Below, piece by piece: positions 3,213 to 21,495 of a stretch of DNA of 26,899 nucleotides (positions are counted from its first letter, which is position 1; the number at the start of each line of letters is the position of its first letter). The stretch comes from a virus: IMG/VR virus record IMGVR_UViG_3300045988_046997, positions 1 through 26,899 of that record; one strand, 5' to 3'. The translations under genes and the position numbers were made by a program. The notes below the pieces were generated by a model. That model searched no databases. It was not told where the DNA came from and saw only the letters and a program-made list of their open reading frames with translations.

Positions 3213-3232
3213 CGGCGTTCATGTGCTAAGAT
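3204..3232 (+). promoter_or_regulatory. Putative promoter for the lysis cassette: extended -10 TGcTAAGAT at 3224-3232 with a weak -35 TCGAAG
   Basis: The same TGCTAAGAT -10 box occurs in early promoters P1 and P3. The -35 match is poor, so the promoter may depend on an activator. Confidence 0.35.
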
Positions 3233-3324
3233 CGTTTTGCTGCGGTTCCTGCCTTCCGCAGCGGTGTATGAGGTCGAGAGTTCTCTCGGCCTCTGTTGCC
3301 GTTTAGGCATTGAACGGAGACAGC

Positions 3325-3630
3325 GTGGACGACATCGAAGAGCGCGTTTGCAAGCTTGAAGCCGAAAACCAGCAGGTAATCGCCGACGTTAGGACGCTCG
3401 GGGAGCGAGTCGGCAGGCACGGATCAGAGCTTGACGAGCTGAAGATCAAGAGCGCGACGATGAACACGGTTTTAACTAGGATCGACGCGACCGTGGCGAA
3501 GATCGACGGTCGGTTGGACGCTCAGCAGATGAAGCCTGCGCAGCGATGGGACGACATCGTGAAGCAGGTTATTACTCTGGTCATAGCAGCCGCCTTCGGC
3601 GCTGTGATGGTTAATCTCGGTTTTCAGTAA
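3325..3630 (+). CDS. XhlA-like protein (N-terminal coiled coil, C-terminal transmembrane helix); lysis-associated
   Basis: ORF 3310-3630 with a TTG at 3310. GTG at 3325 has a GGAGA RBS 4 nt upstream. The coiled coil IEERVCKLEAENQQV... is followed by the hydrophobic C-terminus VITLVIAAAFGAVMVNLGF. It sits directly before the holin, as xhlA does in PBSX. Confidence 0.55.
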   Translation: MDDIEERVCKLEAENQQVIADVRTLGERVGRHGSELDELKIKSATMNTVLTRIDATVAKIDGRLDAQQMKPAQRWDDIVKQVITLVIAAAFGAVMVNLGFQ

Positions 3631-3851: not shown

Positions 3852-4853
3852 ATGGGATGCGCGAACATCGCAGCGACGCTCATGGAGCACCTGTGCAACC
3901 ACGACTGGCACGGCTATAGCCAGCTTGGTCGCTACGGCGACGGCGAGGGCACCTGCCAAGTCGAGGTCGAGGGTCGCACCTATTACCTGCAACAGGGAGA
4001 CCGCGACTGCTCAAGCGCGGTTATCGAGTGCTGGCGCTCGGCGCTCATCGGCACTGCCTATGAAGGCGCACTGGATGAGGCAATCACCACTCGCAATATG
4101 CGCAGCGTGTTTGCGAACTCTGGTCTGTTCGATGTCTGGGACACGCGAGCCACAGTAGCTCAGCGCGGGGACGTGTACCTCAACGACGCCGACCATACCG
4201 CAATGTGCACGTGCGCAGACCCCGACCTACTGGGCGAGTTCTCAATCTCTGAGAACGGCGGCATCGACGGAGAAGTCGGCGACCAGACCGGTTGGGAGTC
4301 GAGCGTTCATGGCTACTACGACTTCCCATGGGATTGCACTCTGCATTACAACGGCAAGGCGGACGGCGCAGAACCTGCCGACAAGCCCATTGAGGTCGCC
4401 CCTCAGCCCTCGCAGCAACCTCAGACTAACGGTCTGCATGTCCGCTACCGCGCTTGCACTCAGGCAAGCGGCTGGTTGGCTGAGATGGTAGACCGCACGG
4501 ACACGAGCGGCTACATCGACGACTTCGCTGGAGACGGAAGCCCGATCACCTATCTTGCGATGGACTTCCCGGGCTGGTATCAGGTTCAGACGGTCAACAA
4601 TGGCTGGCTTCCGAAGGTGTCCAGCTACAACGTGGACGATCTGGAGAACGGCTGCGCTGGCGACGGTTCGCCGATCATCGGCGTTCGCTGCTACTACGAG
4701 ACGCAAGACCCGAACACGACGGGCTGGAAGGCTATCCATTACGCGGTCAACGATCTTGCTGAGATGCGCGACAACGACGCCGACCAGTACGGAGACGACT
4801 TCGCAGGAAACGGCGAGACCGTGACCAAGTTCTACGCTTACATCGGCGATTAG
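3852..4853 (+). CDS. Endolysin: N-terminal Amidase_5-type (Pal-like) catalytic domain plus three C-terminal ~45-aa repeats, tentatively ChW-like
   Basis: The motif ...YYLQQGDRDCSSAVIECW... then ...DADHTAMCT... parallels the Cys and His motifs of streptococcal phage Pal-type amidases. The C-terminal repeats share LAEM-D--D---Y-DDFAG(D/N)G. Confidence 0.8.
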   Translation: MGCANIAATLMEHLCNHDWHGYSQLGRYGDGEGTCQVEVEGRTYYLQQGDRDCSSAVIECWRSALIGTAYEGALDEAITTRNMRSVFANSGLFDVWDTRATVAQRGDVYLNDADHTAMCTCADPDLLGEFSISENGGIDGEVGDQTGWESSVHGYYDFPWDCTLHYNGKADGAEPADKPIEVAPQPSQQPQTNGLHVRYRACTQASGWLAEMVDRTDTSGYIDDFAGDGSPITYLAMDFPGWYQVQTVNNGWLPKVSSYNVDDLENGCAGDGSPIIGVRCYYETQDPNTTGWKAIHYAVNDLAEMRDNDADQYGDDFAGNGETVTKFYAYIGD

Positions 4854-4894
4854 GTTCTAGCTAGGTCGCAGTATGTTCTAGCAGAACAGATCGA

Positions 4895-4923
4895 GACCCC
4901 TCATCGCGAGGGGTCTTTTATTG
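4895..4923 (+). terminator. Rho-independent terminator T1 after the endolysin
   Basis: GACCCCTC-atcgc-GAGGGGTC: 8-bp GC-rich stem followed by TTTTATTG. Confidence 0.75.
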
Positions 4924-4933
4924 TCAAAAGTGT

Positions 4934-4962
4934 TTGCAATTGAAAACGTAATATGCTAAGAT
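4934..4962 (+). promoter_or_regulatory. Early promoter P1: -35 TTGCAA (4934-4939), 17-bp spacer, extended -10 TGcTAAGAT (4954-4962)
   Basis: Sigma70-like hexamers with exact 17-bp spacing. A GTTTGC half-site overlaps the -35 box. The same architecture recurs at P2 and P3. Confidence 0.7.
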
Positions 4963-4971
4963 TTTATTAAC

Positions 4972-4990
4972 GCAAACGGAAAGGGTTTGC
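4972..4990. promoter_or_regulatory. Inverted repeat GCAAAC-N7-GTTTGC just downstream of the P1 start site: putative operator or leader hairpin
   Basis: Perfect 6-bp arms. The same arrangement, GCAAAC-N6-GTTTGC, occurs downstream of P2. Confidence 0.5.
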
Positions 4991-5025
4991 GAAGAGCGCC
5001 CGTCATGGGCGGAAAGGCAGGGGAA

Positions 5026-5703
5026 ATGGAACCAACGAAGGAGGCTGAGCCCAGAAGCGTTTACGCGGTTCTCGCTGAGGTTCAGCATCGCGTGACGTGC
5101 AAGAAGGGTCGCGTGAACAAGTTCGGCGGCTACTCGTACCGATCGCTGGAGGACATCAACGCGGCGTTGAAGCCGCTGTGCCAAGAGCTGAGGTGCGGGT
5201 ACTTCTTCACCGACGAGATCGTGCCTATGAGCGTGGAGGGCGAGAGCAGATGGTACTTGAAAGCCACCGCGACGTTCTGGGCGGAAGACGCTTCCCAGAC
5301 CGTGAGCACGTCTGCGTTCGCGCGAGAGCAGGACTCGAAGAAGGGCATGGACGACGCTCAGGTGACCGGTCTTGCGTCGAGCTACGCGCGGAAGTACGCC
5401 TCTTGCGCCCTGTTCGCGATCGACTCAGGCGAAGAGGTGGACGCGATGGACAACGGGCAGAAACAGCGCGCTCGCAAGCAGGTAACGGCTGAGGCAAAGC
5501 AGGATCAGTCGGAAGAGCTTCTTACTCTGGTCGGTCAGTTCGCCGACATGAAAGGCAAGACTGCTGACGAGGTCATGCGAGCGTTGAACAAGAGCAACAC
5601 CATGAAGGGTCTGGGAGTTGCGGCCGATGCCGTCGAGTACGACGTGGAGCAGACTGCTGCTGCGATCGAACTGCTTAAATCATGGATCGCTAAATCGAAA
5701 TAA
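5026..5703 (+). CDS. erf: ERF-family single-strand annealing protein (recombinase)
   Basis: The ORF begins at 4987 with TTG. ATG 5026 is preferred because the conserved GAAAGGCAGG leader/RBS precedes it; ATG 5005 is an alternative. Motifs: VLAEVQ...KKG..N.FGGYSYRSLEDINAALKPL and ...GLASSYARKYASCALFAID. Confidence 0.8.
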   Translation: MEPTKEAEPRSVYAVLAEVQHRVTCKKGRVNKFGGYSYRSLEDINAALKPLCQELRCGYFFTDEIVPMSVEGESRWYLKATATFWAEDASQTVSTSAFAREQDSKKGMDDAQVTGLASSYARKYASCALFAIDSGEEVDAMDNGQKQRARKQVTAEAKQDQSEELLTLVGQFADMKGKTADEVMRALNKSNTMKGLGVAADAVEYDVEQTAAAIELLKSWIAKSK

Positions 5704-5714
5704 GGAGATAGAAC

Positions 5715-6107
5715 ATGCAAGGATTGAACACGGTGACTTTGGGCGGCAACCTGTGCAGGGACGCGGAACTCAGGATGGCGGCGAGCGGAACAGCCGTACT
5801 GTCGTTCAGCGTTGCGGTGAACGAGAGCGTGAAGGATCGTAACGGAGAGTGGAGCGATTACCCGAACTACATCGACTGCACGATGTTCGGTCGCCGCGCG
5901 GAGAGCGTCGCTCCGTACCTGACTAAGGGAGCGTACGTCGCGGTGGTCGGACGCTTGCATCAGAACCGCTGGAAGGCGCAGGACGGGCAGAACCGCTCGA
6001 AGGTCGAGGTATTAGTTGACAACGTGCACTTCGAGAGCAGGGCTGATCGCGCAGAGGCGGCGCATCAGCAGGGCGGCGCTCTGTACGACGAGGACATCCC
6101 GTTTTAA
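5715..6107 (+). CDS. ssb: Single-stranded DNA-binding protein
   Basis: 130 aa with an AAGGAGA RBS. OB-fold-like N-terminus followed by a Gln/Gly-rich linker and an acidic C-terminal tail YDEDIPF. Confidence 0.85.
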   Translation: MQGLNTVTLGGNLCRDAELRMAASGTAVLSFSVAVNESVKDRNGEWSDYPNYIDCTMFGRRAESVAPYLTKGAYVAVVGRLHQNRWKAQDGQNRSKVEVLVDNVHFESRADRAEAAHQQGGALYDEDIPF

Positions 6108-6114
6108 CGAAACT

Positions 6115-6144
6115 ATCCCCTGAGCGATCAGGGGATTTTCTTTC
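6115..6144 (+). terminator. Rho-independent terminator T2 after ssb
   Basis: ATCCCCTGA-gcga-TCAGGGGAT: 9-bp stem followed by TTTTCTTT. Confidence 0.8.
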
Positions 6145-6154
6145 GAAAAACTGT

Positions 6155-6183
6155 TTGCAATCAAAAACGTAACGTATTAAGAT
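6155..6183 (+). promoter_or_regulatory. Early promoter P2: -35 TTGCAA (6155-6160), 17-bp spacer, -10 TAAGAT (6178-6183)
   Basis: A paralogue of P1. A GTTTGC half-site overlaps the -35 box, and the spacer contains the shared AAAACGTAA. Confidence 0.7.
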
Positions 6184-6193
6184 GTTTACAGAG

Positions 6194-6211
6194 GCAAACG
6201 AAATGGTTTGC
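6194..6211. promoter_or_regulatory. Inverted repeat GCAAAC-N6-GTTTGC downstream of P2: putative operator or leader hairpin
   Basis: Perfect 6-bp arms at 6194-6199 and 6206-6211. Confidence 0.5.
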
Positions 6212-6234
6212 AAGGACAATGAAAGGCAGGAAAC

Positions 6235-6669
6235 ATGAACTTCACGAGCAAGTACGATGTAATCGAGTCTCTGCTGAAGACGTACGACGAGCTGGATCGT
6301 CTCAGGGCTGAGAACGAGCGCCTGAAGCGCGTCAACGCCGACATGAAGAGCATCGACAGCGTGGATGACGAGGAAGACCCGCGAGCGTACCAGAAGGCTC
6401 GGATCATGGAGTACGGGCGCAAGGAGATCATGAAGAACTCTACGAGCTACTGGGACAGCGTCATGGTGAAGCGTGGAGACGAAGGCCAGCTCATCGTTCA
6501 GGAGTTCGCGGACTGGCGCAAGGGAGTAATCAACAGAACCCCCGAGTTCATGAGCTGCGAGGACTTCTACGTACTGATGGACGCGGAGCTTCGAGAGACT
6601 TACGAGCTGCGCAAACTCGAGGCGATCGACAAGCTGGTCGAGTCGGAGCGCGAGTCCGATGGCGAGTAG
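6235..6669 (+). CDS. Hypothetical acidic coiled-coil protein, first gene of the P2 operon
   Basis: 144 aa. It is preceded by the conserved GAAAGGCAGGA RBS region. No family was recognised. Confidence 0.5.
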   Translation: MNFTSKYDVIESLLKTYDELDRLRAENERLKRVNADMKSIDSVDDEEDPRAYQKARIMEYGRKEIMKNSTSYWDSVMVKRGDEGQLIVQEFADWRKGVINRTPEFMSCEDFYVLMDAELRETYELRKLEAIDKLVESERESDGE

Positions 6670-7117
6670 CGCGTTCCGAGTGGCAGGTCAGGTCGTGGGG
6701 AAGCCACGACCACGCTTCAACAGAATGGGAACGAAGGTCAGGACTTACACGCCGAAGAACGGCGAGATGTTCGAGGAGCTGGTCAGGAATTCTTACATGG
6801 CTCAGTGCGGGGAGATGCACAATGGAGCCGTGAAAGTCGAGATCGCGTACCGACGAGTGCTGCCGAAGAGCCGACCGAAGAAGGTCGAGAGCGAGATTGA
6901 TCTGTTCAAGCCGGACGTGGACAACGTGGCGAAGGCGGTTCTGGACGCTCTGAACGGGGTAGCTTTCGAGGATGATAAGGACGTTGTGAGCTTGAAGGTC
7001 GAGAAGCTCCCGAGGGTCAGGATCGAGCAAGACGAGCTGTGCGTGATCGTCAGCGACGCAGACGACGAGGAGATGGAGGAACAGTGGCTACGCTTTACGA
7101 ACTCGACAAGGCTATAG
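6659..7117 (+). CDS. rusA: RusA-family Holliday-junction resolvase
   Basis: Motifs: ...VGKPRPRF... then ...LFKPDVDNVAKAVLDALNGVAFEDDKDV..., a typical RusA signature. Confidence 0.8.
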   Translation: MASSAFRVAGQVVGKPRPRFNRMGTKVRTYTPKNGEMFEELVRNSYMAQCGEMHNGAVKVEIAYRRVLPKSRPKKVESEIDLFKPDVDNVAKAVLDALNGVAFEDDKDVVSLKVEKLPRVRIEQDELCVIVSDADDEEMEEQWLRFTNSTRL

Positions 7118-7581
7118 AGCAGGTGATCGAGCACGGATTCTCATGGGACGAGGAGACGGGCGAGGTTCTGTTCGAGGAGTCTGATCTGGAGAGCCTTCAA
7201 GTGGCGCTCAGCGACAAGCTGGAGGCATGTGGCATCTGGATCAAGAACCAGAAGGCGCTGGCGGACGCTATCAAGGCGGAGGAGAAGGCTCTGAGCGACC
7301 GCAGGAAGTCGATCGAGAAGAGGCTGGAGAGGATGGACGGGTACGTGCTCCGATGCTTGATGAAAACGCCGAAGCAGAGCGTGGAAACGCCGATGGTCTC
7401 GCTGAAGACGAGGAAGTCGACGCGAACGATCATCGACGACGAGTCGGAGGTGCCCGAGGAGTTCACCGAGCATGTCGTCACCGTGAAAGTGAACAAGGCG
7501 GAGATCGGCAAGGCGCTCAAGGCGGGCCGAGAAGTGTCTGGCGCCCATCTGGAGACGAGCCAGAACTTGCAAGTGAAATGA
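7084..7581 (+). CDS. Siphovirus Gp157-like protein
   Basis: The ORF extends from 7039. The start is placed at GTG 7084, which has a GGAGGA RBS. The N-terminus (M)ATLYELDKAIEQ... and the ...EEKALSDRRKSIEKR... coiled coil resemble Gp157-family proteins. Confidence 0.6.
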   Translation: MATLYELDKAIEQVIEHGFSWDEETGEVLFEESDLESLQVALSDKLEACGIWIKNQKALADAIKAEEKALSDRRKSIEKRLERMDGYVLRCLMKTPKQSVETPMVSLKTRKSTRTIIDDESEVPEEFTEHVVTVKVNKAEIGKALKAGREVSGAHLETSQNLQVK

Positions 7582-7597
7582 CGGAAGGAGGCGCGAG

Positions 7598-8287
7598 TTG
7601 GCGGGAAAGCGGATGTTCTCGCGGGACGTCGTCGGCTCCGACGGCTTCGCGGATATGGGCTTCGAGGCTCAGGCGCTATACGTCCACCTGTCGATGGACG
7701 CTGACGACTGGGGTTTCGTAGGAGCTCCGAAGAGGGTTCAGCGCTCCATTGGATCTCGACAAGAGGCTCTGAGAGAGCTTGAGAAGTCGGGTTTCGTTCA
7801 TGTGTTCGAGAGCGGCGTTCTGGCTATCATGGACTGGTGGCAGAACAACACGATCACGGAGAGCAGGCGGAAGGCGACGCAATACGAGGCGGAGCTGGCG
7901 CAGCTGACGGTCACGGATTGCGGTTCCTACCAGCTCGTTTGCGAACCGCAAGCAAACTGCATGCAAAGTGCATGCGAAACGCCTGCTAGTTTAGATGAGG
8001 TTAGTTCAGTTAAATCTAGTTCAGATAAGAAGAAGCCCGCGCGTCATGCCTACGGCACGTACAAGAACGTCCTGTTATCCGATGAAGAGCTGGAGAAGCT
8101 GAAGACGGAGTTTCCGAGCGATTGGCAGGAGCGCATAGAGTCGATATCCACTTATTGCGCATCGAAGGGCAAGGCTTACCGAAACTATCTGGCGACGATC
8201 CGTGCATGGGCGAAACGCGACGGCAAGAAGGGAGGATCGAGAGATGCGGCTGTCTTCGATGCAATCGGCTTTTCAAACGGTGCTTGA
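7598..8287 (+). CDS. Replisome organiser / replication initiator with a DnaD-like C-terminal domain
   Basis: TTG start with a GGAAGGAGG RBS. The C-terminal ...AYRNYLATIRAWAKRDG... is DnaD/DnaB_2-like. An internal iteron + AT-rich element at 7935-8035 encodes the inter-domain linker. Confidence 0.6.
   Translation: MAGKRMFSRDVVGSDGFADMGFEAQALYVHLSMDADDWGFVGAPKRVQRSIGSRQEALRELEKSGFVHVFESGVLAIMDWWQNNTITESRRKATQYEAELAQLTVTDCGSYQLVCEPQANCMQSACETPASLDEVSSVKSSSDKKKPARHAYGTYKNVLLSDEELEKLKTEFPSDWQERIESISTYCASKGKAYRNYLATIRAWAKRDGKKGGSRDAAVFDAIGFSNGA
7935..8035. repeat. Putative origin element oriA inside the replisome-organiser gene
   Basis: Five 11-bp-spaced iterons (GTTTGCgaac, gCAAGCAAA, CTGCATGCAAA, GTGCATGCGAAA, GCCTGCtag) are followed by the AT-rich tagtttagatgaggttagttcagttaaatctagttcagataag. 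About 85 bp of this aligns with 21410-21492. Confidence 0.6.
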
Positions 8288-9077
8288 CGCGCACGAGTCT
8301 GATCCAGTCGGCGACGGGGTCTTCATCGCCGAGGACGGTCTCGCTCATTGCGAGAAGTGCGGCACTCCGATGCAGGTCATCATAACCGACCCGATGGGGA
8401 GGAAACGCACGATGCCGTGCGCCTGCAAATGCATGATCGAGGCTGAGGAACAGCGGAAGCTGGAGGATCAGCGCAGGCGATCCGAGGCGGCTAAGAGGTC
8501 GCGGGTCAGGGCGGCGTTCCCGTTCGAGTCGATGCGCGGGAAGACCTTCTCAGCCGATGACGGGAAGTTCGGCGCAGACCAGATGCGGAAGGCGAGGGCT
8601 TACGCCAAGCGGTTCGTGGAGACTGACGGGAAGATCGACTACGGTTTGCTTTTCTTCGGGAAGCCGGACAGCGGGAAGACGTTCTTGAGCTGCTGCATCG
8701 CAAACGAGGCTCTGGACGCTGGGAAGTCCGTCATCATGCGATCGATGCCGCAGTTGCTCGTCCAGCGCGACGACTCGATGCTCGGCAGGCTGCTCAGGTG
8801 CGACCTGCTCGTCATAGACGATCTGGGAGCCGAGCGCAGCACGTCGTACGGTCAAGAGTACGTCTACGCGGTCGTTGACGGAAGGTACAGCGCGAAGAAG
8901 CCGATGATCGTGTCAACGAACCTGACGCGCGAGGAGCTGGCGGCTCCAGCTGACATCATGTCGGCGAGGATCTACGGGAGAGTGCTGGAGGCTTGCCTGC
9001 CGATCGAGGTGGAGACGGGAAGGCGCAGGGCTACCCGAGACCGATACCGCGAAATAATGGACGACATGGGCGTGTAA
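8244..9077 (+). CDS. DnaC/IstB-like AAA+ helicase loader
   Basis: The ORF extends from 8202. The start is at ATG 8244, which has a GGGAGGA RBS. Walker A FFGKPDSGKTFL; Walker B LLVIDDLGAE. Confidence 0.8.
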   Translation: MRLSSMQSAFQTVLDAHESDPVGDGVFIAEDGLAHCEKCGTPMQVIITDPMGRKRTMPCACKCMIEAEEQRKLEDQRRRSEAAKRSRVRAAFPFESMRGKTFSADDGKFGADQMRKARAYAKRFVETDGKIDYGLLFFGKPDSGKTFLSCCIANEALDAGKSVIMRSMPQLLVQRDDSMLGRLLRCDLLVIDDLGAERSTSYGQEYVYAVVDGRYSAKKPMIVSTNLTREELAAPADIMSARIYGRVLEACLPIEVETGRRRATRDRYREIMDDMGV

Positions 9078-9078
9078 C

Positions 9079-9091
9079 GTGATATAATCAC
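9079..9091 (+). promoter_or_regulatory. Promoter of the XRE regulator: extended -10 TGaTATAAT embedded in the perfect palindrome GTGATATAATCAC
   Basis: TATAAT at 9083-9088 with TG two bp upstream. 13-bp palindrome spans 9079-9091. No good -35 box. Confidence 0.55.
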
Positions 9092-9124
9092 ATATAGAAA
9101 CAGTAACAAACGAGAGGGTAGCAG

Positions 9125-9310
9125 ATGAACGCAGAGGCGATCCGCGAGAAATGCGGGGAGATGGGGATCAGCCAGAACGAGCTGGCGCGACGTACTGGGG
9201 TATCGGTGGCTCACATGTCGAACGTCATGACGGGCAAGCGCGACGCGCGAGTCGGTCTGCTGAAGAAGATGTGCGAGCTGTTCGGAGTGAAGGCAGAGGA
9301 GATCTGGTAA
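9125..9310 (+). CDS. XRE-family helix-turn-helix transcriptional regulator (Cro/CI-like, 61 aa)
   Basis: ...ISQNELARRTGVSVAHMSNVMTGKR... is a canonical HTH_XRE motif. Confidence 0.8.
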   Translation: MNAEAIREKCGEMGISQNELARRTGVSVAHMSNVMTGKRDARVGLLKKMCELFGVKAEEIW

Positions 9311-9510
9311 TGAACGAGGGCAAGCGAGTGAAGATCGCCACGAGGCACGGAGTCCGTTACGGGGTGATCCACTATAGGCGCATCGAGCGCCGATCGTTGA
9401 ACCAGCTAATGGCAGAGCACCAGACGGCGACGGCGGTCGTCGGGATCCTGATCGTGTCGGCGTGCATCCTGCTCGGCGGTCTGGTCGAGGGCGCCAGAAT
9501 GGCTTTTTAA
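9310..9510 (+). CDS. Small membrane-anchored protein (66 aa)
   Basis: ATG overlaps the upstream TAA, with an AGGAGA RBS. Basic N-terminus and hydrophobic C-terminus TATAVVGILIVSACILLGGLV. Confidence 0.45.
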   Translation: MNEGKRVKIATRHGVRYGVIHYRRIERRSLNQLMAEHQTATAVVGILIVSACILLGGLVEGARMAF

Positions 9511-9615
9511 CGGTCTAGGATCGTCTGTGAGCCTCGAAACGCTTCTGAAGGCATGGTTTTACCTTGGAACGCGAAACAAGGCTTGCAAGGCGGCACGGCA
9601 ACGGAAAGGGAAGAC

Positions 9616-9855
9616 ATGGAAGAGTACGGAATGGGGTTCGCGGCGTGCGAGAAACCGCTCGGGACGAACGGTCGATATGAACGCTTGCTCGAGCAGTTCG
9701 AGGAAAGCGGCGACGAGTGCATTTGCTGCGGCTTCGAGGACGTGAAGAAGGCGAAGTCAGCCCAAGCGGCGATCAGCGCCATAGCGCGAAAGAAGCACGA
9801 GGGCATCAGATGCAGCCGCGAATGCTCGACGGTCTACATCTCGAAGGATTTGTAA
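9616..9855 (+). CDS. Small Cys-rich protein (79 aa), possible zinc ribbon
   Basis: Internal ATG preceded by GGAAAGGGAAG. Contains CICCGF...CSRECS. The ORF-track start at 9553 has no RBS. Confidence 0.4.
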   Translation: MEEYGMGFAACEKPLGTNGRYERLLEQFEESGDECICCGFEDVKKAKSAQAAISAIARKKHEGIRCSRECSTVYISKDL

Positions 9856-10274
9856 TGGCTGGAGTGGACACGCTGCCCGAGAACCTGAAGCCGCTCATGG
9901 ACGGAGTTTCCGTGAAGACCCCGTACTGCGCCGTTTGCGGGAGGTCGCGCCCGCTTAACCAGCACCACGTCGTGCGCAGGGGCGCGGGGAAGATTTTCAA
10001 GTTCGGCAAGGAGGTTGAGAAACCGACCGTCACGCTGTGCGGCTTCGGGAACAACCTAGCGGACGCGGACGGCAACGAGTACTGCCACGGGCTGGCGCAT
10101 GCGAACCGGCTCCACTTCCGATGGGTGAAGTCGAAGCAGCCGATCGACGAGTACAGCTGGATCAACGTCAACGGCGGTCATTGGGAGTACTTGAAGACGG
10201 ACGTTCCAACGAAGTACGCCGAGGCTCTGGAGATGGACGGCTGGAAACCGCTGCATCAGCAGTCTGAGTGGTGA
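9855..10274 (+). CDS. HNH endonuclease
   Basis: Start at ATG 9855 overlapping the upstream TAA. Motifs: ...CAVCGRSRPLNQHHVVRR... and ...CHGLAHANRLH.... Confidence 0.7.
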   Translation: MAGVDTLPENLKPLMDGVSVKTPYCAVCGRSRPLNQHHVVRRGAGKIFKFGKEVEKPTVTLCGFGNNLADADGNEYCHGLAHANRLHFRWVKSKQPIDEYSWINVNGGHWEYLKTDVPTKYAEALEMDGWKPLHQQSEW

Positions 10275-10279
10275 AGGGT

Positions 10280-10316
10280 ACCCGCCAGACCAAGAAGGTC
10301 GGCGGGTATTTCTTTC
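10280..10316 (+). terminator. Rho-independent terminator T3 after the HNH gene
   Basis: CCCGCC(a)GAC-caagaag-GTCGGCGGG stem followed by TATTTCTTT. Confidence 0.7.
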
Positions 10317-10334
10317 GGAAAACCTTGAATATTT

Positions 10335-10365
10335 GTTTGCAAACGTGAATGAATCATGCTAAGAT
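10335..10365 (+). promoter_or_regulatory. Middle promoter P3: -35 TTGCAA (10337-10342) inside the perfect palindrome GTTTGCAAAC (10335-10344), 17-bp spacer, extended -10 TGcTAAGAT (10357-10365)
   Basis: Hexamers and 17-bp spacing read directly. The operator-like palindrome overlaps the -35 box. Confidence 0.7.
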
Positions 10366-10366
10366 T

Positions 10367-10405
10367 AGGTCACACCGAAAGGGAAACACCGAACGAAAGG
10401 CAGGA
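10367..10405 (+). promoter_or_regulatory. Conserved 39-nt leader AGGTCACACCGAAAGGGAAACACCGAACGAAAGGCAGGA, identical to 17212-17250
   Basis: Exact identity between the two copies. Contains the tandem ACACCGAA and an AGGA Shine-Dalgarno 4 nt before the ATG. Confidence 0.7.
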
Positions 10406-10409
10406 CACA

Positions 10410-10640
10410 ATGGCAAGCAGGAAACAGACCACCGCAGAGCGTTTCGGCATCGAGAAGCGCGTCTTCGCCGCGAAGATCTGCTACTGCGACATCGAGGACA
10501 ACGGCAAGCAGGCAGGCGCGACGGTCGATTACAAGTCCCTTGCAGCCGCGTACAAGCGTTGCAGCAAGGACATCGCGAACGGCTTGGCGCTGTCTCTTCA
10601 CGCGCTCACAGCCGACGGCTGGGTCGAATGCGGAGCTTGA
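10410..10640 (+). CDS. Hypothetical protein (76 aa)
   Basis: ATG directly after the conserved leader. The ORF-track start at 10356 lies inside the promoter. Confidence 0.45.
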   Translation: MASRKQTTAERFGIEKRVFAAKICYCDIEDNGKQAGATVDYKSLAAAYKRCSKDIANGLALSLHALTADGWVECGA

Positions 10641-10652
10641 TAGAGGGGGCGG

Positions 10653-10898
10653 TTGGAGATGAGGTCTTACAAAGAGCTCGCGGAGATGACGGGAACCACG
10701 GTCGATGAAGTGCGAGCGATGATGCGATCAGCGCGTAAGGTGCACAAGCAGCGCTGCGTCAAACCAGTCGAGTATGAGCTGTACGCGGTTTGGTGCGTTG
10801 GCATCTCGGGAACCGGTTGCATCGGCAGCGGCAGCACCCGAGAAGAGGCGGTTATATACGCGCTCGAGAACAACGTTCAGTTCGCGGCGTTTCTTTAA
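10653..10898 (+). CDS. Hypothetical small protein with an HTH-like N-terminus
   Basis: TTG at 10653 with a GAGGGGG RBS; ATG at 10659 is an alternative. ...SYKELAEMTGTTVDEVRAMMRSARK. Confidence 0.4.
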   Translation: MEMRSYKELAEMTGTTVDEVRAMMRSARKVHKQRCVKPVEYELYAVWCVGISGTGCIGSGSTREEAVIYALENNVQFAAFL

Positions 10899-10910
10899 TG
10901 AGGTTCGGCA

Positions 10911-11147
10911 ATGGCATACCCGATGAACGTTGACGAGTTCAACCTGCGTTTCATAACTGGTAATAACACATGGTTGACCCTTGAGGTCGATGATACGGGT
11001 CACTGCATCGACTACATCGTGACGTACATGGAGGAAGGCTTTCCGCCTGAACGCACGACGTTCCGCGATCAGCCGAACGCGAAGAGGGTGTTCGCATTCA
11101 TGTTGTACAAGCTCTACGAGGTTTTGGCTAAAAAGGAGGAAGAATGA
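10911..11147 (+). CDS. Hypothetical protein (78 aa)
   Basis: ORF ending in an ATGA overlap with the dUTPase start. No family recognised. Confidence 0.4.
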   Translation: MAYPMNVDEFNLRFITGNNTWLTLEVDDTGHCIDYIVTYMEEGFPPERTTFRDQPNAKRVFAFMLYKLYEVLAKKEEE

Positions 11148-11572
11148 TAGGCAGGAAGCTCCACGTCGTACTCGACGGGGAAGTCCCGACGTACGCCCAC
11201 GAGGGAGACGCTGGGTTGGATCTGAGGGCAGCGGAGAGCGTGACGGTGCCAGCCGGTGGATCGGCGCTCGTGCGCACTGGCGTTCGGGTGGAGATCCCGA
11301 GCGGTTGCGTCGGTCTGGTGTTCCCGAGGTCTGGTCTGGGGTCGAAGGGCATCACGTTGCGAAACGCCGTCGGAGTGATCGACTCGGGGTACCGTGGCGA
11401 GGTCATGGCGGCGCTGTGGAACACAACGGGTGACGAGTTCGAGTGCGAGAAGGGCGACCGCATCTGCCAGATGGTCGTCATGCCGTACGTTCCTTGTCAG
11501 GTCGTGATCGTTGAAGAACTGTCGGACACCGAGCGAGGGTCTGACGGTCACGGATCGACGGGGGTCAAGTGA
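11144..11572 (+). CDS. dut: dUTP diphosphatase (dUTPase)
   Basis: AAGGAGGAAGA RBS. Motifs: AGLDLRA, PRSGLG, GVIDSGYRGEV, GDRICQ and C-terminal ...GSDGHGSTG. Confidence 0.85.
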   Translation: MIGRKLHVVLDGEVPTYAHEGDAGLDLRAAESVTVPAGGSALVRTGVRVEIPSGCVGLVFPRSGLGSKGITLRNAVGVIDSGYRGEVMAALWNTTGDEFECEKGDRICQMVVMPYVPCQVVIVEELSDTERGSDGHGSTGVK

Positions 11573-12009
11573 TGAGGAACCCGAGCGTTTACGAGCTGGT
11601 GGAATGGGACACGGGGAGGGTATTGATCCACGGAACGAAAAGCTACATTGCTGATCAGCTCGGGTTGTCGCTTTACTCAGTGGACACGATCATCAGCCAC
11701 GCGAGGAAGGGCATCGGGGCGACGAGGGTCGCGTTCTTCGATCCAGCGATCCACTACCGCGCGTCAAACGGCGATCAGGTCATCGAGGGCACGTGCGACG
11801 AGATAAGCAAGGCGATCGATAGAACACGGTTCTCGGTCATGACGGCGGCGCAGAAAGGGTACGTGACCACGAACGGGTGGAGGATCGAAGAGGTTGAGCC
11901 AGAGTGCTGGTGTGCGTTCGGTGTTCGCAAACGATACAACGACGCTGTGTCGAGGCTGAAAAGCGCGACGCGCCGTGGCAAGGTAAAACGATCTAAGGAG
12001 AGCAGATGA
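11572..12009 (+). CDS. Hypothetical protein, possibly a DNA-binding regulator
   Basis: ATG overlaps the dut TGA. ...SYIADQLGLSLYSVDTIISHARKG... is HTH-like. The C-terminus is basic. Confidence 0.45.
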   Translation: MRNPSVYELVEWDTGRVLIHGTKSYIADQLGLSLYSVDTIISHARKGIGATRVAFFDPAIHYRASNGDQVIEGTCDEISKAIDRTRFSVMTAAQKGYVTTNGWRIEEVEPECWCAFGVRKRYNDAVSRLKSATRRGKVKRSKESR

Positions 12010-12707: not shown

Positions 12708-12817
12708 TGACGAAGATAAGCAAGATCTGCGAATCAGCAAAGATGGTCGCAGGGTTGATTCTCTTTTTCGTGTTTGCTTTCGCGCTGGCGATTGCGCTTC
12801 AGGCGATGCTCGGTTAG
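12707..12817 (+). CDS. Possible small membrane protein (36 aa), below the ORF-track threshold
   Basis: ATG shares its A with the upstream TAA. It encodes MTKISKICESAKMVAGLILFFVFAFALAIALQAMLG and ends at TAG 12815-12817. The RBS is weak. Confidence 0.3.
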   Translation: MTKISKICESAKMVAGLILFFVFAFALAIALQAMLG

Positions 12818-17149: not shown

Positions 17150-17181
17150 ATTCATGTATGAAATAATATAAGCATTACCGT

Positions 17182-17210
17182 TTACAAACAGAAACAAGCA
17201 ATACTATAAT
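17182..17210 (+). promoter_or_regulatory. Promoter P4: -35 TTACAA (17182-17187), 17-bp spacer, -10 TATAAT (17205-17210)
   Basis: Consensus-like hexamers. The upstream GTTTACAAAC is a near-palindrome related to the P3 operator. The 39-nt leader at 17212-17250, identical to the P3 leader, follows. Confidence 0.7.
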
Positions 17211-17211
17211 G

Positions 17212-17250
17212 AGGTCACACCGAAAGGGAAACACCGAACGAAAGGCAGGA
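17212..17250 (+). promoter_or_regulatory. Second copy of the conserved 39-nt leader, identical to 10367-10405
   Basis: Exact sequence identity. Confidence 0.7.
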
Positions 17251-21258: not shown

Positions 21259-21495
21259 AGCTTGCATGCGTTCTGCATGCAAACTGCATGCATTGTGCGT
21301 GCAACTGCAAGCGTTCTGCATGCGGTCTGCGAAGTTAGCGGTTCCCTCGTCAAAATGCGATGGGAAAACCGAAAAAACCGCGTTTGACCTGCTTGTTTGC
21401 AAACTGCAAGCAAACTGCATGCAAACTGCATGCAAAATGCTTGCTAGTATAGGTTAGTTTAGGTTAGTTTAGGTTAGTTTAGATAAGTATAGAGA
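21259..21495. repeat. Putative origin element oriB: two clusters of 11-bp-spaced iterons separated by an A-tract, followed by an AT-rich tandem repeat tract
   Basis: Cluster I has about 7 units at 21262, 21273, 21284, 21295, 21305, 21316 and 21327. Cluster II has 5 units at 21394, 21404, 21415, 21426 and 21437 and includes GTTTGCAAAC. The A-tract GGGAAAACCGAAAAAACCG lies at 21362-21380. The AT-rich tract is 21445-21495. It is non-coding, and 21410-21492 aligns with 7952-8035. Confidence 0.6.
21451..21480. repeat. Perfect tandem repeat (AGGTTAGTTT) x3 flanked by related TAGTAT / AGATAAGTAT units
   Basis: Read directly. This is the most AT-rich stretch of the genome, a candidate DNA-unwinding element. 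Confidence 0.8.

Follow-up and report, generated by a model that had tools for sequence, protein, structure and literature searches.

A hexamer common to early promoters, predicted leader hairpins and putative replication origins of an uncultured gut phage is probably the sum of three unrelated repeated elements

Introduction

The IMG/VR virus record IMGVR_UViG_3300045988_046997 (positions 1 to 26,899) represents a group of uncultured, roughly 30-kb human-gut phages, and its whole length of 26,899 nucleotides, hereafter the window, was analysed. At issue is the hexamer GTTTGC and its reverse complement GCAAAC, which recur at the promoters designated P1 to P3, in inverted repeats within the leaders of P1 and P2, and in iteron arrays at two putative replication origins, oriA and oriB. 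An initial annotation of the window had proposed that one DNA-binding protein recognises both the early operators and the origins, which would couple early transcription to origin occupancy. The analysis points instead to an excess of hexamers that is probably the sum of three unrelated multi-copy elements, each of which happens to contain GTTTGC or GCAAAC: the -35 region of a promoter cassette, the stem of a leader hairpin and the repeats of the origins.

Genome setting and relatives

Every gene of the window lies on one strand, and the features below are given in plus-strand orientation. Tail and lysis genes occupy the first part, followed by P1, which leads into the genes for ERF and SSB, and by P2, whose operon encodes RusA, a Gp157-like protein, a DnaD-like replisome organiser, an IstB/DnaC-like loader and a 61-aa XRE protein (9125-9310). 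P3 stands before the genes for dUTPase, ThyX, the terminase subunits and the portal, and P4 before head and tail genes. The relatives, cited here by handles of the type L001, come from human-gut metagenomes as contigs of some 30 kb and have the gene order of the window, and the XRE gene is syntenic across all relatives of this type. A megablast search of positions 4000-12000 against an annotated phage collection returned no close match; a metagenome scan with the organiser found seven more loci, mostly short, and a pattern scan of IMG/VR for the promoter cassettes found no further contigs. Some relatives carry a tRNA-Pro(CGG) gene (L006:13361-13438, L010:16338-16415) ahead of a DAM-like/GNAT-like gene and those of the terminase, while the window has no tRNA.

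Distribution of the hexamer

All of the GTTTGC and GCAAAC sites listed in the initial annotation are present. GTTTGC starts at 4932 in P1, 6153 in P2 and 10335 in P3; the inverted repeats GCAAAC-N7-GTTTGC and GCAAAC-N6-GTTTGC occupy 4972-4990 and 6194-6211; and the full palindrome GTTTGCAAAC stands at 10335-10344 and 21395-21404, the 32-nucleotide oriB string at 21395-21426 being exact. Two positions call for amendment. The hexamers of the first oriA iterons are there (GTTTGC 7937-7942, GCAAAC 7952-7957), the end at 7956 given for them being one base short, and the degenerate form at P4 is likewise present as GTTTACAAAC at 17180-17189, the interval 17182-17210 previously assigned to it being the promoter and not the motif.

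That these sites occur non-randomly is borne out by a genome-wide count, with 30 matches on both strands of the 26.9-kb window against 13.2±3.9 in dinucleotide shuffles, not one of 100 shuffles reaching 30, and with GTTTGCAAAC at no more than one mismatch found in 9 copies against 0.51 expected. Half of the matches (15/30) lie at P1, P2, P3, oriA and oriB, and non-coding DNA, which makes up about 1.8 kb (6.6%) of the window, likewise contains 15 of the 30; the 15 matches outside the named sites are spread over coding sequence at the background rate, the whole excess residing in five clusters. The copies within these clusters are not independent events, because P1-P4 are paralogous cassettes and the iterons are tandem copies of one unit, and the excess therefore amounts to about three sequence families, each of them multi-copy. 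Near-palindromes at 3346, 4109, 11923 and 13371 were considered as extra binding sites and rejected, since they lie in ordinary coding context and have no phased neighbours.

Promoter cassettes

The four cassettes share one layout, consisting of an intrinsic terminator, an A/T tract, GTTTRCAA, a 17-bp spacer, TAAGAT or TATAAT, a leader, the ribosome-binding site (RBS) GAAAGGCAGG and ATG. The exact RBS decamer is found at four places in the window, all within these cassettes, which align with a mean identity of 62% per column, and the paralogy earlier ascribed to the four promoters is thereby upheld. The terminator of P1 (4893-4917) is a stem-loop GAGACCCCTC..GAGGGGTCTT followed by a T-run, a layout repeated before P2 (6115-6136), P3 (10280-10307, ACCCGCC..GGCGGGT and then a T-run) and P4 (17126-17143). 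The P1 core promoter (4932-4962), in a cassette conserved in relatives, begins with GTTTGCAA and places the -35 box TTGCAA at 4934-4939, a 17-bp spacer and TGc-TAAGAT, the -10 box being at 4957-4962. P2 (6153-6183) has the same GTTTGCAA, a 17-bp spacer and TAAGAT at 6178-6183, and P3 (10335-10365) has the 10-bp palindrome GTTTGCAAAC, which includes the -35 box TTGCAA, again with a 17-bp spacer and TGc-TAAGAT. At P4 (17180-17210), GTTTACAAAC allows TTTACA or TTACAA as the -35 box, TATAAT lies at 17205-17210, 11 of 12 consensus positions match, and this promoter alone passed a strict promoter consensus scan. All four are intergenic, with a terminator upstream and an RBS and start codon downstream, and their geometry is that of sigma-A promoters (TTGCAA, 17 bp, TAAGAT at P1-P3; TTTACA, 18 bp, TATAAT at P4).

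The -35 box TTGCAA, with its 17-bp spacer, is itself palindromic, and GTTTGC is this box shifted two bases upstream. At P1-P4 the hexamer would thus be TTGCAA together with its two upstream bases, read by host RNA polymerase as the -35 element of a sigma-A-type promoter. Across 31 distinct cassettes of the relatives, positions -37 to -30 read GTTTGCAA (n=14), GTTTGCCA (n=4), ATTTGCAC (n=4), GTTTGCAC (n=3) or, in one cassette each, ATTTGCAT, GTTTGCAT, ATTTACAA, GTTTACAA, ATTTGTAC and GTTTGTAA, giving the consensus RTTTRYMH. Two of these positions had to be T for a cassette to pass the harvesting filter; apart from this requirement, conservation at the first and sixth hexamer bases is no higher than at several positions of the spacer. 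The 10-bp palindrome of P3 is kept in the closest relatives only, with GTTTGCAACC or GTTTGTAACC in L002, L006 and L010.

This breadth of conservation bears on a reading in which uniformity extends over the entire cassette (about 60 bp) and is maintained by a phage factor devoted to it or by gene conversion occurring often between the copies; the hexamer would then be part of a larger recognition or recombination module. In the 31 cassettes the -35 flanks are matched in information content by positions -16, -15 and -12 to -9 of the spacer and by +1 to +7 (GTTTACA), each lineage has a uniform cassette of its own (aaattctcGTTAGt..CTAAC..TATACT in L007, TGcTATACT in L012), differing genes stand behind a like cassette in different phages, and ERF, SSB and RusA are all encoded by the phage. 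The conservation is not exceptional, however, P1-P4 being just 62% identical on average. No candidate factor was identified, and the pattern is explained equally well by common descent if the two promoter boxes (-35 and -10), the hairpin and the RBS are under selection; a uniformity mechanism of this kind seems unlikely.

Further promoter-related arrangements were seen. A fifth site at 3227-3265 has TGcTAAGAT without a GTTTGC -35 region and is followed by a strong hairpin, GCTGCGGTTCCTGCCTTCCGCAGC, just 5' of the holin and lysin genes; a like sequence with a hairpin precedes the lysis genes of relatives (L010:4449-4558, L006:142-366), and the site may be a lysis-cassette promoter with a structured leader. 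At 9061-9088 an extended -10 element, TGaTATAAT, again without GTTTGC, lies directly 5' of the 61-aa XRE gene and is overlapped by the inverted repeat GTGAT-ata-ATCAC, which could be an autoregulatory site. The cassettes of L007 (L007:8270-8315, 9935-9975 and 12755-12800) have in common an inverted repeat, GTTAG-N7-CTAAC, across the -35 box and spacer, which looks more like an operator than anything in the cassettes of the window.

Predicted leader hairpins of P1 and P2

The leader of P1 contains two hairpins, the first (4971-4991, CGCAAAC-ggaaagg-GTTTGCG) lying about 2 nt past the predicted transcript start and the second (4996-5011, GCGCCC-gtca-TGGGCG) being followed by the RBS GAAAGGCAGG at 5012-5021 and the ERF start codon at 5017-5019, while the leader of P2 has one (6194-6211, GCAAAC-gaaatg-GTTTGC), followed by an RBS at 6221-6230 and ATG at 6235. 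The GCAAAC/GTTTGC hairpins of both leaders begin 2-5 nt after the start predicted from the -10 box. Folding of the P1 leader gave -19 kcal/mol (z = -2.3) with both hairpins, and that of the P2 leader -7.9 kcal/mol (z = -2.9); in the window and its relatives together the z-scores of such leaders range from -2.3 to -4.6, against about zero for the leaders of P3 and P4. The P3 leader (RBS 10395-10404, ATG 10410) is unstructured, with z = 0.06, and the P4 leader (RBS 17240-17249, ATG 17255) is near-identical to it.

The sequence of the stem drifts among relatives while its pairing is largely retained. The majority have CACAAAC...GTTTGTG where the window has CGCAAAC...GTTTGCG, and L030 has a G:U intermediate; L004 combines the A:U form in its P1 leader with the G:C form in its P2 leader, and the P2 leader of L031 reads CACAAAC/GTTTGTG. 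Pairing in hairpin 1 was counted on a shorter alignment with a user-specified structure, because MAFFT moved the right arm between subgroups and RNAalifold then called hairpin 2 only. In the 13-sequence alignment 89% of pairing cells are complementary, a figure that drops to 15-62% once the partner is displaced by 1-3 columns, and the informative pair (GCAAAC/GTTTGC versus ACAAAC/GTTTGT) is AU in eight sequences, GC in three, GU in one and unpaired in one, which amounts to compensatory change with modest support. The loop of this hairpin type measures 6, 7 or 8 nt, loops overall spanning about 5 to 8 nt, one subclade has the hairpin CAAACACC/GGTGTTTG in a shifted register, and the more distant L007 has hairpins of unrelated sequence (GGGG..CCCC) at the equivalent position. 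Hairpin 2 is conserved in 11 relatives without covariation in the RNAalifold analysis of P1-type leaders, and a search of the whole window against Rfam at gathering thresholds found no match.

The initial annotation had mentioned as an alternative that the downstream repeats act as RNA hairpins in the leader, and it is this reading that the stable folds and the paired changes in relatives favour, the repeats of P1 and P2 appearing from their sequence behaviour to be RNA structure and not a fixed protein operator. Stem-loops at the 5' end are known to stabilise mRNAs, the aprE transcript of Bacillus subtilis being an example (references in PMC3997798). The most likely role predicted for the P1/P2 hairpin is that of such a 5'-terminal stabilising stem-loop, in which the GCAAAC-N6/7-GTTTGC arms would pair at the extreme 5' end of the transcript and protect the early mRNAs from 5'-end-dependent decay, the different and unstructured leader of P3 and P4 having no such element. 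That the same repeats are instead DNA operators for a dimeric helix-turn-helix protein, with the 61-aa XRE product as candidate and an origin-independent roadblock just past the transcript start as the effect, is very doubtful: the perfect 6-7-bp inverted repeats centred at about +20 and the synteny of the XRE gene speak for it, but the arms are unequally spaced among relatives and shifted in register in one subclade, the changes in the arms preserve pairing through a G:U intermediate that is meaningful in RNA only, L007 has unrelated hairpins in the equivalent place, and P3 and P4 have no such repeat.

Putative replication origins

The iteron array of oriA (7937-7991) lies inside the replisome-organiser gene (7598-8287) and consists of five 11-bp units, GTTTGCgaacc, GCAAGCaaact, GCATGCaaagt, GCATGCgaaac and GCCTGCtagtt. 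It is matched unit by unit by the right array of oriB (21395-21449), which reads GTTTGCaaact, GCAAGCaaact, GCATGCaaact, GCATGCaaaat and GCTTGCtagta, so both of the iteron elements recognised earlier are real, with the same 11-bp phasing and an identical order of units. The unit is a GCWWGC core with an AAACT spacer; GTTTGC takes the core position of unit 1, and GCAAAC is made up of the last two bases of a core and the AAAC of a spacer. Further repeats follow each array. Those adjoining oriA (TAGTTTAG/TAGTTCAG, 7987-8030) are translated as protein, and their layout is kept in relatives, with other repeat sequences in L013; at oriB, three GGTTAGTTTA repeats (21450-21485) lie between head-tail connector genes. 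Both sets are probably DNA-unwinding elements. In a left array at oriB (21260-21328), six or seven GCWWGC cores recur at intervals of about 11 bp, separated by spacers that differ from one another (gttct, aaact, attgt and others); the counterparts of this array in relatives have 3-8 copies of TGCAAGC, also with variable spacers. The distance from oriA to oriB, which stands between head-tail genes, is 13.46 kb, and this arrangement is kept in relatives.

The core, rather than the hexamer, is the stable part of these arrays. GCATGC occurs nine times in the window, eight of them in the origins and none at promoters, while the first oriB unit of relatives may be GTTTGC, GCTTGC (L019) or GTTTAC (L016). 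GCAAAC is absent from oriA in L004 (organiser 93% identical to that of the window) and L030 (88%), where three GCWWGC cores are kept; L013 has a like architecture built on another iteron, GGCAACCACAT. The organiser presumably binds the phased GCWWGC cores at both of these SPP1-like origins, where GTTTGC would be a degenerate first core that has stayed in phase. Its gene matches PHROG 8489, a DnaD-like loader/replisome organiser (4e-48); the protein has no match in Pfam, NCBIfam or the PDB and no similarity to SPP1 gp38 (BLASTP E = 2.1), so that it is a candidate functional counterpart of gp38 and not an established member of its family. The TTGCAA within the first oriB iteron was considered as a -35 box and rejected by eye, there being no -10-like hexamer 17 bp downstream.

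The iterons and unwinding repeats of oriA (7937-8030) translate as a linker of the organiser, VCEPQANCMQSACETPASLDEVSSVKSSS, which places this stretch under constraint at the protein and the DNA level alike; among relatives, both the length and the sequence of the linker follow the repeat number. In L007 an origin-like iteron array with TAGATTAG repeats (L007:6493-6585) is intergenic, between the lysin gene and the recombinase operon, while the corresponding stretch of its organiser gene has two GCWWGC cores only; the position of the origin copies may therefore differ between lineages, the L007 contig excluding the late region that corresponds to oriB. L032 stands apart in composition, with 68% G+C against about 58% in the window. 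Its oriA region (L032:10290-10470) differs from those of its siblings by many A:T to G:C transitions, such that GGCCAGTCCGGG replaces GGTTAGTTTAGG in the repeats of the unwinding element and the iterons take the form GCSSGCagact; a hypermutated lineage, adaptation to another host or an assembly artefact could each account for this.

Relationship between promoters and origins

If a single protein served both promoters and origins, the recognised part of the iteron should be traceable at the promoters. No promoter or leader site of the window contains the most strongly conserved part of the iteron, its 11-bp-phased GCWWGC core. Scans with iteron position weight matrices (PWMs) ranked the best promoter and leader sites between 11th and about 300th, depending on the matrix, with scores equal to those of coding-region hits such as 10097, 4109, 3345 and 13370. 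Each cassette was also compared with all three origin arrays for k-mers in common, against dinucleotide shuffles. Hexamers common with the origins numbered 11 for P1 (shuffle mean 7.3±3.2), 10 for P2 (7.0), 5 for P3 (4.2) and 2 for P4 (2.5), and some coding windows exceed every cassette, so that in this unbiased comparison the cassettes have k-mers in common with the origins at a level not clearly higher than that of shuffled sequence.

The two kinds of element also evolve separately in relatives. The origin of L007, whose organiser is 58% identical to that of the window, reads GTTTGCaattt GTTTGCaaact GCAAGC..GCAAACt, and its promoters are all of another type (aaattctcGTTAGt-N-TATACT), with 13 copies of the motif in the contig against 12.3 expected and none at promoters. 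L012 has kept GCATGCAAAGT iterons alongside promoters with TGcTATACT, and among members of the close clade changes in the -35 flanks and leader arms are not accompanied by corresponding ones in the iterons, nor the reverse. L032, with different iterons and unchanged promoters, was given little weight as evidence of decoupling because the contig is anomalously GC-rich. Also in L007, an inverted repeat GCAAACG-N12-CGTTTGC (L007:12601-12627) sits where an operon ends on its 3' side, ahead of a terminator and the promoter that follows.

The reading under which the organiser, or some other early protein, binds single, degenerate GTTTGC(A) sites over the -35 boxes as well as the P1/P2 inverted repeats, phased with them, and the iterons would have early transcription throttled as the organiser accumulates and replication complexes assemble, much as plasmid Rep dimers repress their own promoters by way of inverted repeats derived from iterons. 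It has the confinement of the hexamer excess to promoters and origins in its favour, together with the exact occurrence of the 10-bp palindrome at both P3 and the first oriB iteron, the position of P2 and its inverted repeat ahead of the operon that contains the organiser gene, and the precedent of RepE dimers, which bind inverted repeats between promoter and open reading frame (ORF) in the F plasmid (PMC13028717). Against these stand the promoters that lack the conserved core and score at the coding-region background; the oriA arrays of L004 and L030 without GCAAAC; the passage of leader arms to ACAAAC/GTTTGT with unchanged iterons, and the difference between the two leaders of L004; arm spacings of N6, N7 and N8 with another register in the subclade hairpin; -35 flanks that vary (ATTTGT, GTTTGT, ATTTAC) where iterons do not; the iterons of L007 and L012 in genomes without the promoter motif; and the loss of the P3 palindrome in L002, L006 and L010. 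One protein reading both operators and origins is consequently disfavoured on sequence grounds, as highly improbable, and the coupling of early transcription to origin occupancy is not supported either, iterons and promoter motif having evolved separately in L007, L012, L004 and L030. Were it true, a lytic phage would have a new way to couple transcription to replication; no description of a plasmid-Rep-style link between transcription and origin occupancy was found for phage replisome organisers.

Several observations weigh against the explanation of the excess as three unrelated elements. At k = 8, P3 has 3 words in common with the origins where 0.34 are expected, a nominally unusual value reached by 26 of 1000 shuffles, and P1 is borderline (63 of 1000), both being weak signals that count for a shared protein; several mid-ranking iteron PWM hits fall in the P2 region, and the P2 inverted repeat sits between promoter and organiser operon in the layout of plasmid Rep autoregulation. 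The covariation of the leader hairpin comes mainly from one base pair, with perhaps two or three independent switches, and L001 has an A-C mismatch and L032 another mismatch. The cassettes, lastly, are conserved along their whole length, spacer included, which therefore leaves room for a regulator binding within them or for gene conversion between copies, neither of which would turn the hexamer into an independent site. The explanation by a -35 box, a leader hairpin and an iteron, which overall are ordinary elements, is nonetheless retained as the probable one, and the evidence against one common protein means that annotation of the motif as a shared operator is unwarranted. The case illustrates how a motif count can be inflated by duplicated elements without a common function, and what is useful for annotation is that four promoter cassettes, the conserved hairpin of the 5' leader and two SPP1-like origins have been mapped.

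Comparison with known systems

Autoregulatory operators related to iterons, the closest known parallel to the idea of one protein for promoters and origins, are also found in the systems of the P1 RepA, pSC101 RepA and R6K pi proteins. The leader of promoter P2 resembles such operators, of which that bound by RepE was described above, in having an inverted repeat with bases in common with the iteron between a promoter and the operon of the initiator. It differs in that 6 of 11 iteron bases are common and these are the least conserved ones, the recognised GCWWGC part being absent from promoter and leader sites; in that the spacing of the half-sites is unfixed (N6, N7, N8, and a shifted register in one subclade); and in that operator and iteron sequences are unmatched across relatives, the arms in the clade of the window drifting from the iteron by paired changes while the iterons keep or independently lose GCAAAC. 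The repeat at P1, moreover, does not precede an initiator gene.

The promoters resemble sigma-A (sigma-70 type) promoters with extended -10 elements, TTGCAA agreeing with TTGACA at 4 of 6 positions and being followed by a 17-bp spacer and TAAGAT or TATAAT, with TGn at P1 and P3, whereas the TAAGAT form of the -10 box and the GTTTGC-flanked -35 box are lineage-specific styles. The leader hairpin, known in the window from its sequence, is unrelated in sequence to the stabilising stem-loops of Firmicute mRNAs as represented by aprE in the literature consulted, and belongs to no Rfam family; it is like them in being a stable hairpin near the predicted 5' end, followed by a strong purine-rich RBS, and in conserving its pairing while its sequence drifts.

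In SPP1, gene 38 contains oriL, and oriR is found at a distance of about 13 kbp in the late region; gp38 binds both (PMC6316719), and binding of gp38 to early promoters is not mentioned in that genome review. The window differs from SPP1 in that its loader is IstB/DnaC-like, no helicase gene was found in its replication module, its repeat sequences are unrelated and its organiser has no detectable similarity to gp38. The likeness lies in the architecture, with one origin embedded in the organiser gene and the other in intergenic DNA amid late structural genes, 13.46 kb away compared with about 13 kb in SPP1, with direct repeats followed by an A/T-rich repeat region at both origins, and with a helicase-loader gene after that of the organiser.

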